Assembly: GCA_050011835.1 (NCBI GenBank)
Contig: JBEKII010000004.1
Coordinates: forward strand, 8,386-72,385
Origin: Minisyncoccia bacterium
Lineage (GTDB): Bacteria > Patescibacteriota > Minisyncoccia > Phycocordibacterales > Phycocordibacteraceae
Reading direction: 5' to 3'
Length of the DNA: 64,000 nt
Program-made: the position numbers and the translations under genes
The notes under the pieces: model-generated
Seen by the model: the letters and a program-made list of their open reading frames with translations, nothing else
Told to the model about the DNA's origin: nothing
Database searches by the model: none
Shown here: positions 227 through 38,332 of the stretch, piece after piece
Position numbering within the stretch: position 1 is the first letter of the stretch
Layout: every line of letters starts with the position of its first letter

Positions 227-1222
227 AGTAATTTTCATCTCAATCTGTAAATCCTGGAGGTTGCTTTTGTATGAAAACACAAATCCCGCCACCAGGTGGG
301 TCTTGCGACCCTACGTAAGTTTCCCTACGCAACGTACGACACGCCCCTGATGACGGGGTTTCTGTGTCGTACGATTTCGAACCATGCCCGCAGGCCATCG
401 CCGGAGGGTTTAGGTTCTTCTGTTCGGGACTATAGCACGATTTATTATTGCTTGTGTCTTTATGTATTGTTGTGGAAAACCTCTTGCAAGTTTATTTTGA
501 TTTTGATATATTTATATGTGATGCTAGTCCAGCAAGAATTTTTTTCTTGTCGAACCTTGGACTAAGGGTTGAATTCCCTCCGTCTCGTCAGCGGGAAAGA
601 GCCACAGGCTTTTTCTCGTTTAGTCAACAAGAAAAGCCTCCGCTCGGAGGTTCTTTTTTTATCTAGCCAAAAGTATCCATCACAAAGCCTCGCTTCTTGC
701 TTGGCAGGTTATGGATACGCCTGCTCGGTAAGAAATGGGGCTTCTGCTTTATCACTAAGCGGAATTAGTTATGCGAAGCATTAAACGGAGATTCTCTAAT
801 CTCCAAAATAAGCGACCAGAATTGAGTAGTCTCATCAACTTCGGAGCCGCAATCAAGAGGCAAGGATTCAGTGTGAACATGATTCATCGTTGGTTCGGGA
901 AATTGGTCGAAACCGACGATTATGAGAAGCGCGACCGGCGGGCGATTTTGCGCCATCTCGTCATTCTCTCAAACCCTGTGAGGACAACGGGAAATGGGGC
1001 AATTTTGCCCTGCTAGACGCATGAATAGGGCGTCCGCGACGGATGCTCCACGAATACTCATTGAGGAGCAGTTTCAGTCCGAATCGCCAGTACAAAATGG
1101 CGGTATAATACCTATAGCTAGGTATCGGAAATTGACAGGTGATTTCACCAGTACCGATGCTCGCGTGGTCGAACGCCTACAGTACCTAGAGCAGTTTTGC
1201 CGAGTAATCATACAGACGGAAC

Positions 1223-33656: not shown

Positions 33657-35327
33657 ATGGATTTACCATTTGATATCGGACAAGAAACAAGAAAGCTCAC
33701 CGAAGTGCGCGAGCGAGAAGAGGAGGATGTCGCGCGCATTCTCTCCGAAAAGTACGGCATGACATACGTTGACCTTTCATTAAAGGAAATAAACAGCGAT
33801 GCCCTCCGCACGATTCCTGAAGACGAGGCGCGCCTCGCTGAAGTGGCGGCCTTCGCGCGCGTCGCCGAGGTGCTCTCGCTCGCCGTCCACAATCCGAACA
33901 ACCCCGCATTCATTAAACTTCGCGCCGAGCTCGTCGGGCGCGGATTCTCACTGCAAGAATTCCTCGTTTCGCAGAAGAGCTTGGATCGAGCGTTCGCTCG
34001 TTATGCTGACCTTACATTCTCTACCGAATCAAAAGCGGGCGGTTTCATTATTAACAAAGAAGTGCTCGCAAGACTCATAAAGGAAAACGGAACGCGGAGC
34101 GCTCTGAAGCAAGAACTTGACGCCACCACGACCCTGAAATCGCTTGACCGCGTCTCGCGCATTTTAGAAGCCGTTCTCGCGGGCGCTTTCGCGCTTCGCT
34201 CCTCCGATATTCATTTTGAACCAGAGGAAGAAAGAACTCGTTTGCGATTGCGCATTGATGGCATTCTGTTTGACACGTATTTTTTTGATCCGGCGACCTA
34301 TCATCAGCTCAACTCGCGCATCAAACTGCTCTCGGGCGTGAAGCTCAACGTTACCAATCGGGCGCAAGACGGACGTTTCAGTGTCTTGCACGAGAATAAC
34401 TCGGTAGAAATGCGCGTTTCCTTCATCCCCGGCAATTATGGAGAAGCCATCGTCATGCGTATTCTTAATCCCGAAGCGACCAAGGTCTCTTATAAGGAGC
34501 TCGGTATCCATCCGAAACTCCTCGCGCGTCTCGAGAGAGAAATCCGCCGTCCGAACGGCATGCTGCTCACGACCGGCCCCACCGGGAGCGGAAAGACGAC
34601 CACGCTTTACTCATTTCTCCGCGAGATTCACACGCCGGAAATAAAAATCATCACGATTGAAGACCCGGTTGAATACCATCTTGACGGTATTGTGCAAACG
34701 CAAGTCGCAGGAACGAAATACACCTTCGCCGAAGGGCTCAAGTCAATTGTCCGCCAGGACCCGGATATCATTATGGTCGGCGAAATCCGCGATAGTGAGA
34801 CCGCCGACATCGCCATCCAAGCGGCGCTCACGGGCCATTTCGTTTTCTCCACCCTCCACACCAATGACGCCGCTGGCACCTTCCCGCGCCTTACGGACCT
34901 CGGCGCGGACCCGAAATCCTTCGGTTCGGCAATTACTGTTTCCATGGCGCAACGTCTCTTGCGCCGACTTGACCCGGATAAAAAGAAAGAACGCTCGCTT
35001 ACCGACGACGAGAAAAAAATGATTGCAAAAGTATTTGAACCACTCGCCGACAAATCACTCGTTCCGGAAAAAATAGAAAAGGTTTGGGACCCGGCTCCCG
35101 CGAACGAAGACGAGACCGGCTTCAGGGGCCGCATCGGCCTGTACGAGGCAATTTTCATGGATGATGCGCTTGCAAATTTCCTTCGCGATAATCCGCCAGA
35201 AAACGAAATCGCGAAATTTACCTCAAAACAGGGCTACCTCACAATGGCGCAGGACGGCATCGTCAAAGCTCTTGCTGGTATCACGTCCCTTTCCGAAGTC
35301 GCCAATACCGTTGACCTTCCTAGGTGA
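33657..35327 (+). CDS. pilB: Type IV pilus assembly / type II secretion ATPase PilB (GspE family)
   Basis: Walker A TGPTGSGKTTTLYS, GEIRD and His-box THTNDAAG; N1/N2 domains. Confidence 0.9.
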   Translation: MDLPFDIGQETRKLTEVREREEEDVARILSEKYGMTYVDLSLKEINSDALRTIPEDEARLAEVAAFARVAEVLSLAVHNPNNPAFIKLRAELVGRGFSLQEFLVSQKSLDRAFARYADLTFSTESKAGGFIINKEVLARLIKENGTRSALKQELDATTTLKSLDRVSRILEAVLAGAFALRSSDIHFEPEEERTRLRLRIDGILFDTYFFDPATYHQLNSRIKLLSGVKLNVTNRAQDGRFSVLHENNSVEMRVSFIPGNYGEAIVMRILNPEATKVSYKELGIHPKLLARLEREIRRPNGMLLTTGPTGSGKTTTLYSFLREIHTPEIKIITIEDPVEYHLDGIVQTQVAGTKYTFAEGLKSIVRQDPDIIMVGEIRDSETADIAIQAALTGHFVFSTLHTNDAAGTFPRLTDLGADPKSFGSAITVSMAQRLLRRLDPDKKKERSLTDDEKKMIAKVFEPLADKSLVPEKIEKVWDPAPANEDETGFRGRIGLYEAIFMDDALANFLRDNPPENEIAKFTSKQGYLTMAQDGIVKALAGITSLSEVANTVDLPR

Positions 35328-35333
35328 AGAAAA

Positions 35334-36878
35334 ATGGAAAAAATTCCAAACAAAGAACAGGATCCGAAACAACGAACGCCGGAGGAAAAAGATATTCTTC
35401 GCGCACGTCTAAATTCAATAGTGAGCCAGAGCATCACGACAGCAAATATTGATACGTTCGCCGATTCGGCCCTCAATGAGCTTATTTTGTTTACCGGGGA
35501 AATTGTTGAGCACTATAAAACCGAACATCCGAAAGATATAGGTTCCGGGAAAGAACTCGAGGACCGTGCTTTCTCCACTTACGGTCTTGATGATTTAAAT
35601 TTGTACCTCGTACGTGTTCAGGAAAAGTCTGACCAGATTCATCAGCTTGATAAAGCATTGCAGGATATGAGTAATATCCCTGAGGTAATTACTCCTCCTG
35701 ATAAAAATAGTTCTTTTGTTAAAAGTAGTAACAGTAGCAATCCCTTTGAAGAAAAAGTGCTGATATCAAGACTGAAACTACTTTTGTATATTTTAGGTAA
35801 CGATTTCAATCTAAAACTTGAGGATGTTCAGCTTACCCGGGGAATTGTAACTGACACTATGGTGCGTCGAGAAAGTTATGTGACAGCAGAAATTCCCGCA
35901 CTACGTCGTGTTGTTCAAATCTGCGATGAAGAAGGAAACGCCAGTTACGTGTTTGATGGTGAAATTATGGCGCAAGAAGGAATCAGTGTCGCTGACTTGA
36001 ATCGTTCCGAGAAGCGAGAAAAAAATGAGCTTATAGATAAGTTCAGAGGGATTGGCACTCGCCTGATTCAACAAGCACATTGGCGCGACGTGATGGCAGA
36101 ATTTCTCTCCTCCCCTCTAGAGAAACCCGAGGAGGAAACGGTTGATCCGACATCAAAGGACCTGCCACAAGTTATAACTTCTGAATTCGATCCTTGGCGT
36201 GGTTTTCTTGAGGCAGATGGTATGCGCTGGGGGACAAAAAATGCAATTATTGCGTATCTTCACACAAATCATGAAACGATAGGTTCTTTTATTAAAAAGC
36301 ATCCGGAAATCCCTTCAAAAGAAGTGCGGGACTTGACAGGGAAAAAAAGAGAATCCTATCCAATAGAACAGATTGAGCCGAAATTTAAAGAACTTTTTTC
36401 CCTTTCTAAAGTCGCAACAAGCGGCGAGTGGAAAGGATTCTACGAAAGCGAGGACAAACATTGGGGAACAGCACACACAATCGCTATGCGATTAGGTTTA
36501 ACTAAAGGTACCATAGAGCCTCTTGTCAGAAAACATCCTGAAATTCAATCTAAAAGGGTGCGCGATTTAACAAACAAGGAAGCAAAAGCTTATTCTCTAG
36601 AACAAATCAAATCCAATGTTGATGAGTTTCTTTCTCTCCCTAAAGTCGCAACAAGCGGCGAGTGGAAAGGATTCTACGAAAGCGAAGGTGAGCACTGGGG
36701 ACCAATTAATACGATAGAACACTTCTTGGGGGTACTCAGGGGTAATATTTATTACCAAATTAAAAGACATCCTGAAATTCCATCAAAGAAACTGAGGGAT
36801 CTGACGGGAAAGGAAATATCAAATGCTTATTCTCTGGAACAAATTAAAAATATATTCAAAATAAAATCCCGTCCGTAA
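35334..36878 (+). CDS. Tandem-repeat protein (three ~55-aa repeats: HPEIPSK.VRDLT...SLEQI...ATSGEWKGFYESE..HWG), function unknown
   Basis: 514-aa ORF directly after pilB; internal nucleotide-identical ~47-nt repeats at ~36406 and ~36640. Confidence 0.5.
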   Translation: MEKIPNKEQDPKQRTPEEKDILRARLNSIVSQSITTANIDTFADSALNELILFTGEIVEHYKTEHPKDIGSGKELEDRAFSTYGLDDLNLYLVRVQEKSDQIHQLDKALQDMSNIPEVITPPDKNSSFVKSSNSSNPFEEKVLISRLKLLLYILGNDFNLKLEDVQLTRGIVTDTMVRRESYVTAEIPALRRVVQICDEEGNASYVFDGEIMAQEGISVADLNRSEKREKNELIDKFRGIGTRLIQQAHWRDVMAEFLSSPLEKPEEETVDPTSKDLPQVITSEFDPWRGFLEADGMRWGTKNAIIAYLHTNHETIGSFIKKHPEIPSKEVRDLTGKKRESYPIEQIEPKFKELFSLSKVATSGEWKGFYESEDKHWGTAHTIAMRLGLTKGTIEPLVRKHPEIQSKRVRDLTNKEAKAYSLEQIKSNVDEFLSLPKVATSGEWKGFYESEGEHWGPINTIEHFLGVLRGNIYYQIKRHPEIPSKKLRDLTGKEISNAYSLEQIKNIFKIKSRP

Positions 36879-36906
36879 TCCTCAAGACCCCGCCGGCACC
36901 GCCTCC

Positions 36907-37011
36907 CTAAAAACAGGATATCTCACGATAGCGCAGGACGGCATTCTCAAAGCCCTCGCCGGCATCACTTCCCTTTCCAAAGTCGCTGATACGATTGACC
37001 TGCCGAGATAA
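36907..37011 (+). pseudogene. Duplicated pilB 3'-end fragment (LKTGYLTIAQDGILKALAGITSLSKVADTIDLPR*)
   Basis: 34 of 35 codons align with the last 35 codons of pilB (…KQGYLTMAQDGIVKALAGITSLSEVANTVDLPR*), ~78% nt identity; lies directly after the repeat-protein gene. Confidence 0.6.
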
Positions 37012-37012
37012 A

Positions 37013-37045
37013 CAGAAGTCGCCTGACAGAGTCAGGCGACTTCTG
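37013..37045. terminator. Perfect 15-bp inverted repeat (CAGAAGTCGCCTGAC...GTCAGGCGACTTCTG), likely bidirectional terminator between convergent genes
   Basis: Direct read; sits between the pilB remnant (+) and a minus-strand ORF. Confidence 0.5.
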
Positions 37046-37052
37046 TCGGACG

Positions 37053-37259
37053 TTACTTGATGGTGACCTCACCCATCACCTGATAAAACTCTTGTTTCGA
37101 TATCACGTAAGGCCTCCTTTCTTTTTTGACAAAGACCACCTCCTGTTCACGCTCCTCCAGACAAAACCCGCGAGTTAACACGGGGAAGACGAAACACCTG
37201 AGGAGATTCCCAGCATAGTACCGAAGTACTGAACCAGGAATTCCTTGGGGAAACGCCAA
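37053..37259 (-). CDS. Hypothetical small protein
   Basis: 68-aa ORF, no recognisable motif. Confidence 0.3.
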   Translation of the reverse strand: MAFPQGIPGSVLRYYAGNLLRCFVFPVLTRGFCLEEREQEVVFVKKERRPYVISKQEFYQVMGEVTIK

Positions 37260-37336
37260 AAGCCGTCAAGCCCTTGCCTAGAGGAGTATGAACAGGAACA
37301 GAAATCGTGCTAGAATGCTAGCACTGCACGATTTTT

Positions 37337-38332
37337 ATGTCAACCCCCCTCAAAACTTCTTCCGAACCGTCTTCATCGCTCGATGCGGTGCTGCGCCCCA
37401 GCCATTGGGACGATTATGTCGGCCAGAAACAAGTGAAAGCGAGCGTGCGGATTTCTATTGATGCCGCGAAGAAGCGCGGCGGTATGCCTGAGCATTTCCT
37501 CTTCTATGGTCCGCCGGGAGTCGGGAAGACGACGCTCGCACACCTCGTCGCCGCGACACTTGAATCACCATTAAAAAGTACCTCGGGCGTCGCCATAGAG
37601 CGCGCCGGTGACCTCGCGGCGATATTGACCAACCTGGAACCGAACACTGTTCTTTTTATTGACGAAATTCATCGCCTCTCGCGCAAAATTGAAGAGCTTT
37701 TATATCCCGCGCTTGAGTCGGGCCATCTTGATATCGTACTCGGGAAAGGCCCTTCGGCACGCACGGTTGAGCTTGCGCTTCCGCCGTTCACATTGGTCGG
37801 CGCAACGACACGCGTTGCGGAACTTTCCGGACCGCTGCGCTCGCGCTTCGGCGGCGGCGTGTACCAGCTTGACTTCTACAGCGACAGCGATCTGCGTGAT
37901 ATCATTCGTCGTTCAGCTAGTCTGCTCAAACTTTCTGTTCCCGAAGAGGTTATCGAACGCATCGCGGCACGGAGTCGTGCGACGCCGCGTATTGCGAATG
38001 CACTCTTGAAGCGCGTGCGCGATTTCTCCGAAGTCCGCGAGCGGAAGCTCTCTACCGCACTTTGCGACGAGGCATGCGAACTTTTCGGCATTGATGCATT
38101 CGGACTTACGAAAGACGACCGTCGCTACCTCGAAACCCTTCACAAGAGCTTCAGAGGCGGTCCGGCAGGCGTTCGTGCTCTCGCGGCCGGTCTTCATGAA
38201 GATTCGGACACCGTTGAATATGTGTACGAACCGTATCTGCTTCGTCTCGGTTTCGTTGAGCGTTCTTCTCGCGGCCGTATACTCACACAAAAAGGCCGCG
38301 CTTATCTTGAAGACGGGCCGCTTTTATTTTGA
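37337..38332 (+). CDS. ruvB: Holliday junction DNA helicase RuvB
   Basis: HFLFYGPPGVGKTTLAHLVA Walker A, AAA+ sensor and winged-helix C-terminus. Confidence 0.9.
   Translation: MSTPLKTSSEPSSSLDAVLRPSHWDDYVGQKQVKASVRISIDAAKKRGGMPEHFLFYGPPGVGKTTLAHLVAATLESPLKSTSGVAIERAGDLAAILTNLEPNTVLFIDEIHRLSRKIEELLYPALESGHLDIVLGKGPSARTVELALPPFTLVGATTRVAELSGPLRSRFGGGVYQLDFYSDSDLRDIIRRSASLLKLSVPEEVIERIAARSRATPRIANALLKRVRDFSEVRERKLSTALCDEACELFGIDAFGLTKDDRRYLETLHKSFRGGPAGVRALAAGLHEDSDTVEYVYEPYLLRLGFVERSSRGRILTQKGRAYLEDGPLLF

Follow-up and report, generated by a model that had tools for sequence, protein, structure and literature searches.

How did the 3' end of pilB come to stand twice in one genome, with a gene of foreign composition between the two copies? 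The question was raised by a stretch of 64,000 nucleotides from a Minisyncoccia bacterium (assembly GCA_050011835.1, contig JBEKII010000004.1; the whole stretch is referred to below as the window), in which pilB is followed by an open reading frame (ORF) of 514 aa, here called the cargo, and then by a second pilB tail. The reading preferred, at a probability of roughly 0.58, is that the locus is a horizontal acquisition scar left by recombination between two diverged Parcubacteria (Minisyncoccia / Kaiserbacteria-like) lineages. The features on which the argument depends are the following.

33657..35327, plus strand: pilB, intact, 556 aa, ATPase of the type IV pilus / type II secretion system E (T2SS-E) family (Pfam T2SSE, E 1.4e-101; MshEN)
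35223..35327, plus strand: copy 1, the functional last 35 codons of pilB including the stop TGA, probably imported with the cargo
35334..36878, plus strand: cargo ORF, 514 aa, with its ATG 7 nt past the pilB stop
36858..36893, plus strand: fragment of an RNA-gene end plus A-rich spacer, putative pilB-downstream sequence of the source lineage, overlapping the last codons and stop of the cargo
36894..36906, plus strand: junction zone; the illegitimate joint lies here or a few bases off, and the exact breakpoint is not resolvable
36907..37011, plus strand: copy 2, remnant of the resident pilB 3' end, untranslated, without a start codon, frame and stop kept
37013..37045, plus strand: hairpin with a perfect 15-bp stem and a 3-nt loop, directly past the copy 2 stop
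37135..37310 (approximate), minus strand: structured RNA gene, complete resident copy of ~170 nt, between pilB and ruvB
37337..38332, plus strand: ruvB (Pfam RuvB_N), the conserved right-hand neighbour of pilB

Read from left to right, the window contains pilB tail A, the cargo, a truncated RNA-gene end A, the junction, pilB tail B, the hairpin, a spacer of ~90 nt, a complete RNA gene B and ruvB. The repeat of the pilB 3' end, which had been proposed in a first-pass annotation of this DNA, is real. Both copies align in frame and without gaps, and copy 2 has a stop codon. In the ungapped comparison of 35223..35330 with 36907..37014, three flanking bases included, 82 of 108 bases were identical, and 24 of the 102 coding bases differed between the copies. 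A repeat search reported the pair as 109 nt at 77% with a spacing of 1684 nt; in the whole window just four direct-repeat families, this pair among them, reach 40 nt. The similarity therefore stood, and the 78% identity first given was slightly generous, the actual figure being 76-77%; the alignment also showed that the repeat is not low-complexity sequence. The longest block identical between the copies was 14 nt, GCGCAGGACGGCAT, near the 5' side of the repeat. Translated in register, the pilB tail reads SKQGYLTMAQDGIVKALAGITSLSEVANTVDLPR and copy 2 reads LKTGYLTIAQDGILKALAGITSLSKVADTIDLPR, each followed by a stop, in copy 2 its own TAA. As had been proposed, pilB owes its intact reading frame to the first copy; the second is a remnant that is not translated, with no start codon and with an in-frame stop upstream at 36862. 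The description of the bracketed gene was also borne out: ORF 35334-36878 starts 7 nt after the pilB stop and ends in three C-terminal tandem repeats of 234 nt. Full-length orthologues of the intact pilB were 76-84% identical (Kaiserbacteria/Parcubacteria genomes and metagenome contigs).

Differences between copy 1 and copy 2 were distributed 6/3/16 over codon positions 1/2/3. By codon, 15 were synonymous and 7 non-synonymous, and the Nei-Gojobori method gave a synonymous divergence (dS) of 1.10, a non-synonymous divergence (dN) of 0.123 and a dN/dS of 0.11. Because the differences are mostly synonymous, the two copies are pilB alleles that diverged under purifying selection in different lineages. 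Third-position divergence between them (16/34) was the same as the average for different relatives compared with one another (16.9). Each tail evolved as a functional pilB end, in separate lineages, and one lost its function only recently. Relative to an ordinary pilB tail, copy 2 had an excess of only ~3.5 changes at codon positions 1 and 2, had 0 indels and kept its stop; changes at otherwise invariant pilB residues were M to I, E to K and Q to T. Two parts of the first-pass annotation did not survive this comparison. The insertion had been called old, for which a remnant with only ~3-4 extra non-synonymous changes, no indel and an intact stop codon gives no support. The pilB C-terminus had also been taken as regenerated by duplication of resident DNA. 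At dS 1.10 against dN 0.12, duplication in situ followed by neutral decay is rejected, since decay of such a duplicate predicts ~31 non-synonymous differences and 8.5 were observed (P ~4e-9). GC content at third codon positions (GC3; 0.59 in copy 1 and 0.56 in copy 2) did not tell the native from the imported copy, and quartet and distance analysis of the 102-nt segment, in which third positions are saturated, did not resolve the sister status of the copies.

Related loci were used to establish what the site looks like without the cargo. The comparison set comprised 80 pilB loci from species-representative genomes and 80 from metagenomes (labelled below with L-numbers), mostly Kaiserbacteria/Parcubacteria, in which pilB was 45-84% identical to that of the window (88% in one partial contig). 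The 514-aa gene is an insertion, as had been suggested: a homologue was absent from all of the ~160 related pilB loci, none adjoined pilB among 169 loci, and pilB-ruvB synteny was the rule. ruvB lay downstream of pilB in ~120 of the ~160 loci with a spacer typically of 200-500 nt, the shortest spacers (204-210 nt) being those of the closest relatives. The distance from pilB to ruvB in the window is 2010 nt, and 326 nt when counted from the copy 2 stop, that is, after removal of the 1684-nt insert; as 326 nt is a normal pilB-ruvB distance, the spacing is ordinary once the insert is taken out. Copy 2 and its hairpin were collinear with L016, L098 and L014, where pilB ends in ...VADTVDLPR and stop and is directly followed by a homologous hairpin (AGAAATCGCCCGACAGAATC...). 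The GC content of the cargo is ~0.40 against ~0.54 in the flanks, and its GC3 is 0.36 against 0.60 in pilB and ruvB. No recombinase, transposase or nuclease family was detectable in the insert by Pfam, NCBIfam, PHROG or structure searches, and in the Pfam scan of all window ORFs the best 25 of 72 families were all housekeeping.

The pilB-ruvB spacer was also observed to be a hotspot for unrelated cargo of 1-2.4 kb (L016, L054, L057, L062, L066, L068, L075, L078, L083 and others). Candidates recognised by eye, not checked against Pfam, were a transposase-like ORF in L016, LOG-like ORFs in L062, L066 and L083, and a DUF559-like ORF in L078. A search with each locus's own pilB tail detected no pilB remnant in 17 related loci with enlarged pilB-ruvB spacers, which hold other cargo.

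A second scar lies at the right end of the insert. In Kaiserbacteria-like genomes the minimal pilB-ruvB spacer is filled by an RNA gene that is antisense to both pilB and ruvB, and the sequence directly past the pilB stop in the closest relatives is AAAA(C)AAAATCCCGTCCATA(A/C/G)TCCTC(A/G)AGGCAAAACCCGC.... The motif AATCCCGTCCGTAATCCTC occurs in ten relatives, in 7 of them 9-18 nt past the pilB stop. The window has a single occurrence, at 36865-36883, which spans the final codons and stop of the cargo; the number expected by chance is 0.03. In a local alignment 36858-36886 was identical to L085 at 26 of 29 positions, with a possible continuation to ~36899, and the fragment 36858-36893 aligned poorly with the window's own RNA-gene end downstream. 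Homology to the RNA-gene end stops at ~36893-36899 and pilB homology begins at ~36907. In relatives, the pilB stop separates the RNA-gene end from the pilB tail, with 100-135 nt between them; in the window they abut. The two positions linked by the joint would be found on either side of the pilB stop in any one genome, so the joint is illegitimate (non-homologous) and connects two versions of this interval. A microhomology of the CCGC type could be present in the junction zone 36894-36906 (CCCGCCGGCACCG...). The first-pass view of an insertion into pilB itself has to be amended accordingly: a 26-36 nt piece of the RNA gene still follows the cargo, which probably lay between the pilB stop and the RNA gene in its source.

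The affinities of the left-hand module point to L085. The ending SEVANTVDLPR of copy 1 was, among 40 relatives, common only to L085; CCGTAATCCTC of the RNA-gene fragment was closest to CCATAATCCTC of L085 and L013; and the N-terminal half of pilB was 80% identical to L085, with other relatives at 75% or less. polA, tsaE, ruvB, yebC, ruvC and the penicillin-binding protein gene were no closer to L085 than to other relatives. The L085-like pilB-cargo module, taken with the foreign composition of the cargo, favours import of the pilB-cargo tract from an L085-like lineage into a different backbone, with weak evidence for the direction.

The events proposed are as follows. In an L085-like source lineage the cargo would have followed the pilB stop closely and would itself have been followed closely by the antisense RNA gene, whose 3' end normally adjoins pilB, giving the order pilB stop, cargo, AAAATCCCGTCC.... 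A stretch of that chromosome, comprising at a minimum the cargo ORF with the 3' part of pilB on one side and the RNA gene's first 26-36 nt on the other, would have entered the cell, presumably by natural transformation, and recombined by homology-facilitated illegitimate recombination (HFIR). At its left end the incoming stretch would have replaced resident pilB sequence through a presumed homologous crossover, and at its right end it would have been joined illegitimately to resident pilB, ~35-45 codons before the stop. pilB would then end in the imported tail (copy 1), with the resident tail (copy 2), the hairpin and the resident RNA gene persisting downstream.

The scar belongs to an already known class of recombination event, of which it is an unusually clear example. 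HFIR is defined by one homologous plus one illegitimate joint and is known from natural transformation or conjugation in Acinetobacter, pneumococcus, Pseudomonas stutzeri and E. coli (PMC3240628); competent bacteria are where it would be expected. As in HFIR, foreign DNA in the window would lie beside a homologous anchor, its far end is joined non-homologously and mobility genes are not needed; the one non-homologous joint is seen where 36858-36893 abuts 36907 onwards. The window differs in that the anchor is not located, that its alleles are far more diverged (dS ~1.1) than the experimental substrates, that its product keeps, rather than deletes, the resident segment past the joint, and that the process is read from a scar and was not itself observed.

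Several points weigh against import from an L085-like source by this route. RecA-type recombination at ~80-85% identity is inefficient, a dS of ~1.1 makes a poor homologous anchor, and both joints could be illegitimate. The proposed source arrangement, pilB with the cargo, was not found in any of the 169 pilB loci checked. No relative more than 90% identical was found, the left crossover is not placed, and the direction depends on weak phylogenetic hints. In a sliding-window scan for the nearest relative along pilB the best relative changed in every window, because a close relative is missing, and no breakpoint appeared; nor was a left-crossover breakpoint visible in the GC3 profile along pilB. 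The exact breakpoint and any microhomology at the right-hand joint are not readable. Natural competence is not shown for this class within the CPR (candidate phyla radiation); Saccharibacteria, also CPR, are naturally competent (PMC10633639).

Similar scars were sought in 1.43 Mb of sequence (164 related loci and the window) as a same-strand remnant of the last 40 codons of a gene within 6 kb downstream of it. About 8 comparable scars were found, at pilB, ruvB, ruvC and pepA. At pilB, L132 and L095/L096 carry a two-gene module (71 aa and 82/83 aa) followed immediately by ...TSLSxVxxTVDLPR and stop. The modules lie at 886-1645 in L132 and 5362-5906 in L096, the remnant being the last 16-18 pilB codons including the stop, and the L095 pilB 3' end is identical. 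The second gene gave weak matches to YoeB/ParE toxin models and the module has its own TATAAT box. Toxin-antitoxin genes (78-86%) and pilB (80%) were about equally diverged between L132 and L096, and the remnant of these loci is an old scar that drifts neutrally. Between pilB and the module, L132 has ~210 nt that include an extra fragment resembling the RNA-gene end (AAAATCCTGTTCATAGTCCTCAA), so the pilB site has undergone repeated rearrangement.

At ruvB, L017 (7791-9195) has a 67-nt remnant, 94% identical, with 3 of 4 differences at third positions, beyond an insert of ~1.3 kb that holds a PemK/MazF-like toxin gene and, on the opposite strand, an NYN-domain fragment. L058 (9720-10960) has two successive cassettes at the same gene, with ORFs of 169 aa and 306 aa without a Pfam hit. 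Both end alike, in a GC-rich hairpin (CGGCCGGyGGGAGCAATCCCmCCGGCCG), TGACTTTTTATGC or TTTTTATGC, and a remnant of the ruvB tail (CGRTVTDKGY...). The locus is an apparent cassette array on gene-end remnants, which unequal homologous recombination or a conserved element end could account for. At ruvC, in L050 (9757-11389), ~190 nt (~60 codons) are duplicated almost identically 1 kb downstream, with only the last few codons differing, and the copies flank two minus-strand genes for small membrane proteins, one of the 8xMP family (PF24838); the sequence has the look of a 'long target duplication' that happened recently. At pepA (Peptidase_M17), L001 (4767-5884) has a 47-nt remnant, 83% identical, with 7 of 8 differences synonymous. 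It lies beyond two inserted ORFs (95 and 217 aa) and directly upstream of P0002, the closest homologue of the cargo; a third pepA remnant was not found downstream of that homologue.

The same joint could have been made in the opposite direction, with pilB, the cargo and the RNA gene long resident and with pilB tail B, the hairpin, RNA gene B and perhaps ruvB onwards imported. The homology anchor would then lie on the right and the illegitimate join inside the resident RNA gene. The architecture is symmetric, ruvB and the downstream genes have no clear nearest relative, and the RNA gene of the window has features common only to L008, all of which would suit this direction. It is nevertheless unlikely: L085-like sequence is seen in copy 1, in the fragment of the RNA-gene end and in pilB's N-terminal half but not in the genes on either side, and by the low GC of the cargo it is the left module that arrived recently.

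In the way that islands enter tRNA genes and bring along a replacement 3' end, a small integrative element, with its integrase acting in trans or since deleted, or a circle carrying a pilB 3' fragment could have entered by a Campbell-type crossover in the pilB tail. A topology of this kind is known at icd/icdC, which flank prophage e14 (and phage 21) in E. coli K-12: an intact hybrid gene with a replacement 3' end, the cargo, and a C-terminal pseudogene beyond it, with mainly synonymous differences (PMC13626634). There, as in the window, incoming DNA restores the 3' end of a housekeeping gene and the resident end is left as a remnant. In contrast, e14 is a 15-kb prophage with an integrase and an attachment (att) core, whereas the insert in the window is a single ORF without a recombinase and shows no discrete element end. 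On its right it finishes in part of the chromosomal RNA gene next door, cut short, which would be unexpected for a circular element. The 14-nt identical block GCGCAGGACGGCAT near the 5' side of the repeat might be taken for a core, and the hairpin and ruvB-like end shared by the two cassettes of L058 resemble a conserved element end. No identical core at both ends was shared by the independent pilB insertions, however: the remnants of L132 and L096 start ~17 codons from the stop, downstream of the 14-nt block, and the ruvB remnants of L017 and L058 begin at different codons. Such differences in remnant boundary between events at the same gene argue against one shared att core. The repeats of the cargo resemble winged helices of the Xis/RdfS excisionase type, but the similarity to Xis is not statistically significant, and no pilB fragments accompany the homologues of the cargo, which sit in unrelated housekeeping contexts. 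An integrative element is on these grounds quite improbable.

A further parallel exists in fungal mitochondria, where mobile ORFs (Allomyces atp6; the 'mORFs' of Glomeromycota) import a foreign C-terminus of the host gene that takes the place of the resident one, the latter being left as a remnant downstream. Their mobility is explained by the homing endonucleases that they encode, of the GIY-YIG or LAGLIDADG type; the cargo of the window, unlike them, has no detectable nuclease family or fold.

Joining of contigs from two co-occurring populations by a metagenome assembler would produce a chimera, and the window does come from a metagenome-assembled genome with two halves that look like two lineages. 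This is very hard to sustain. The joint is between non-homologous positions, with no common k-mer to mislead an assembler. The identical arrangement is present on an independent Joint Genome Institute (JGI) contig of different length (L165; 1 mismatch in 7545 nt), the cargo protein is present on three contigs, and analogous scars occur in unrelated assemblies, including the identical L095 and L096 from two projects.

Insertion of the cargo in situ with a long target duplication, followed by decay of the downstream copy, would be an established event. It is described for restriction-modification units (Nobusato et al. 2000; Furuta et al. 2010), which stand between direct repeats of 30-400 bp with no mobility genes linked to them, often overlapping the 3' end of a gene and mostly in naturally competent species (PMC2853133). 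The window shares the operational criteria of Furuta et al. 2010 (PMC2853133), having an insert of less than 20 kb that is absent from relatives, no mobility genes, and flanking direct repeats longer than 30 bp, each of which can be aligned with the one target copy of genomes whose site is empty. The units concerned are selfish or accessory, as is the toxin-antitoxin cargo of related loci here, and the near-identical ~190-nt ruvC-end duplication in L050 fits the class. Long-target-duplication repeats are, however, near-identical (44/46, 417/423), whereas those of the window are heteroallelic at 76%; with a dN/dS of 0.11 and a dS of ~1.1 they do not derive from one resident target and are incompatible with a decaying resident duplicate (P ~4e-9 as above), and the source-type RNA-gene fragment would be left unexplained. 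For this locus the explanation is barely credible.

Equally hard to credit is that the remnant is under selection, as an alternative pilB tail restored when recombination between the copies removes the cargo or as a fusion to the cargo by frameshifting: its frame and stop are kept, its dN is low and the remnants of L132 and L096 have persisted since before those lineages split, but copy 2 has no start codon, is offset by +1 from the cargo frame without a slippery site and has changes (M to I, E to K, Q to T) where pilB is otherwise invariant, and the L132 and L096 remnants differ by 6/3/8 over codon positions, close to neutral.

For annotation, the consequence is that pilB is here chimeric and that 36907-37011 is a pseudogene fragment. 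CPR bacteria (Patescibacteria) have tiny genomes with few recognisable mobile elements, and their routes of gene gain are poorly documented. The two independent scars of this locus show gene gain by recombination with a synonymously saturated lineage, with one illegitimate joint and no mobility gene. The recurrent scars in related loci, some with toxin-antitoxin cargo, suggest a common route that is open to systematic survey. A broader proposal can be put forward only tentatively and is considered doubtful, namely that accessory genes in Parcubacteria and other CPR (toxin-antitoxin pairs, small membrane proteins, the helix-turn-helix repeat protein of the window) are routinely gained without integrase or transposase, through DNA of diverged relatives recombined at the 3' ends of conserved genes, and that the remnants serve as portable homology arms on which cassettes are stacked through unequal homologous recombination. 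The two cassettes of L058, with the same hairpin and ruvB remnant, would be an example. If true, CPR would have a counterpart to tRNA-island or integron cassette arrays that works without an enzyme, and the scars would form a genome-wide, datable record of natural transformation in uncultivated bacteria. The locus also flags two uncharacterised items, a cargo family of more than 1000 clusters at 50% identity and a structured antisense RNA without an Rfam family.

The cargo is probably co-transcribed and translationally coupled with pilB. The sequence AGGTGA-AGAAAA at 35322..35333 (plus strand) provides a Shine-Dalgarno-like AGGTGA, formed by the last codon and stop of pilB, with a 6-nt spacer to the cargo ATG, and it is this position across the pilB end that suggests coupling; copy 2 and relatives have CCG AGA TAA or CGG TGA at the same place. 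No convincing promoter was found inside the pilB-cargo region. The hairpin at 37013-37045 (free energy -32 kcal/mol, z -5.95, no T-run) is probably the resident pilB terminator, now ending the pilB-cargo transcript, of which the remnant and the hairpin would form the 3' untranslated end. As a separate candidate, programmed frameshifting or read-through from the cargo into the remnant was rejected, with the +1 offset, no slippery site and inconsistent offsets in L096 and L132.

The cargo protein consists of an N-terminal domain (residues 1-283) and repeats of 78 aa (234 nt) at residues 285-362, 363-440 and 441-509. It matched no Pfam or NCBIfam family; a PHROG match to MarR was at 4.5e-4. A word index returned 19 homologues, and a profile of the N-terminal 283 residues matched 1055 cluster representatives (clustering at 50% identity), of which 440 scored below E 1e-30. 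With 1055 cluster representatives the family is large; it is unnamed and CPR-specific. Residues invariant across 82 members were E76, R178, Y182, C197, E199, N202 and K227, and the motif CDEEGNASYxFD was conserved. The AlphaFold2 model of the N-domain (predicted local distance difference test, pLDDT, 81.6) has a four-helix bundle followed by a small alpha/beta domain. Foldseek with this model gave no match in PDB or BFVD (best E 0.6 and 0.3), and no nuclease domain (LAGLIDADG, GIY-YIG, HNH, PD-(D/E)xK) was recovered from the cargo by family searches or, for the N-domain, by fold. The N-domain may be a new catalytic domain.

The 78-aa repeat occurs 1-9 times per protein in 82 of the 157 family proteins retrieved. 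Its model (pLDDT 82.9) has a winged-helix topology in the order beta-beta-alpha-alpha-beta-beta-alpha. The best PDB matches found with Foldseek were BldC, Xis of the mycobacteriophage Pukovnik, RdfS, MerR-type proteins and MuA, with probabilities up to 0.98 and E values of 0.13-0.9, which are not significant. Among the 82 members scanned, helix-turn-helix Pfam models were matched as HTH_11 in 8, P22_Cro in 5 and MerR_1 in 1. From the model the cargo is most likely a multi-winged-helix DNA-binding protein, to which no role is assigned. Its homologues are packed tightly after pepA, after an S1-domain gene, between uvrB and murB, and next to NUDIX, ClpB and PGM genes, and no mobility genes or pilB fragments were found in those contexts.

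The candidate RNA gene was characterised by an alignment of 26 loci read on the minus strand (L007 3243-3446, L085 5666-5873 and L091 2435-2643 are examples in relatives). Its extended -10 box, TGCTAnnAT, is invariant, and its fold, ~170 nt long, is rod-like. Of the 60 pairs predicted in the consensus structure, 20 show compensatory changes; a UUCG-capped apical hairpin and a 3' hairpin are part of it. Promoter-like sites in the window are an extended -10 at ~37315-37325 and TTGACA at 37338-37343. The window copy shares features only with L008. A search of 36800-37400 against Rfam, at the gathering threshold and at E up to 10, gave nothing credible, and the gene has no matching family. In some relatives (L006, L009, L013) the promoter is separated from the RNA body by an insertion of ~170 nt. 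The window also has, between its hairpin and its RNA gene, a mini-ORF of 17 codons with a GTG start (37053-37106, minus strand; VISKQEFYQVMGEVTIK and stop), preceded at a 6-nt spacing by a strong AAAGGAGG. A 68-aa ORF called by JGI at 37053-37259 overlaps the RNA gene, and its N-terminal part is probably spurious.

Away from pilB, a diversity-generating retroelement was observed at window positions 10074-12839, with the following parts.

10074-11327, minus strand: reverse transcriptase (RVT_1, 7.6e-23)
11160-11516, plus strand: bAvd accessory gene of the retroelement
11562-11682: template repeat of the retroelement
12053-12173: variable repeat, 3'-terminal in the target gene (263 aa; 12048-12839, minus strand)

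Between the template and the variable repeat, 16 of 17 mismatches are at template adenines. A match to the LOOT RNA (RF03000) was also observed at window positions 298-416 on the minus strand, at 74.5 bits against a gathering score of 46.4.

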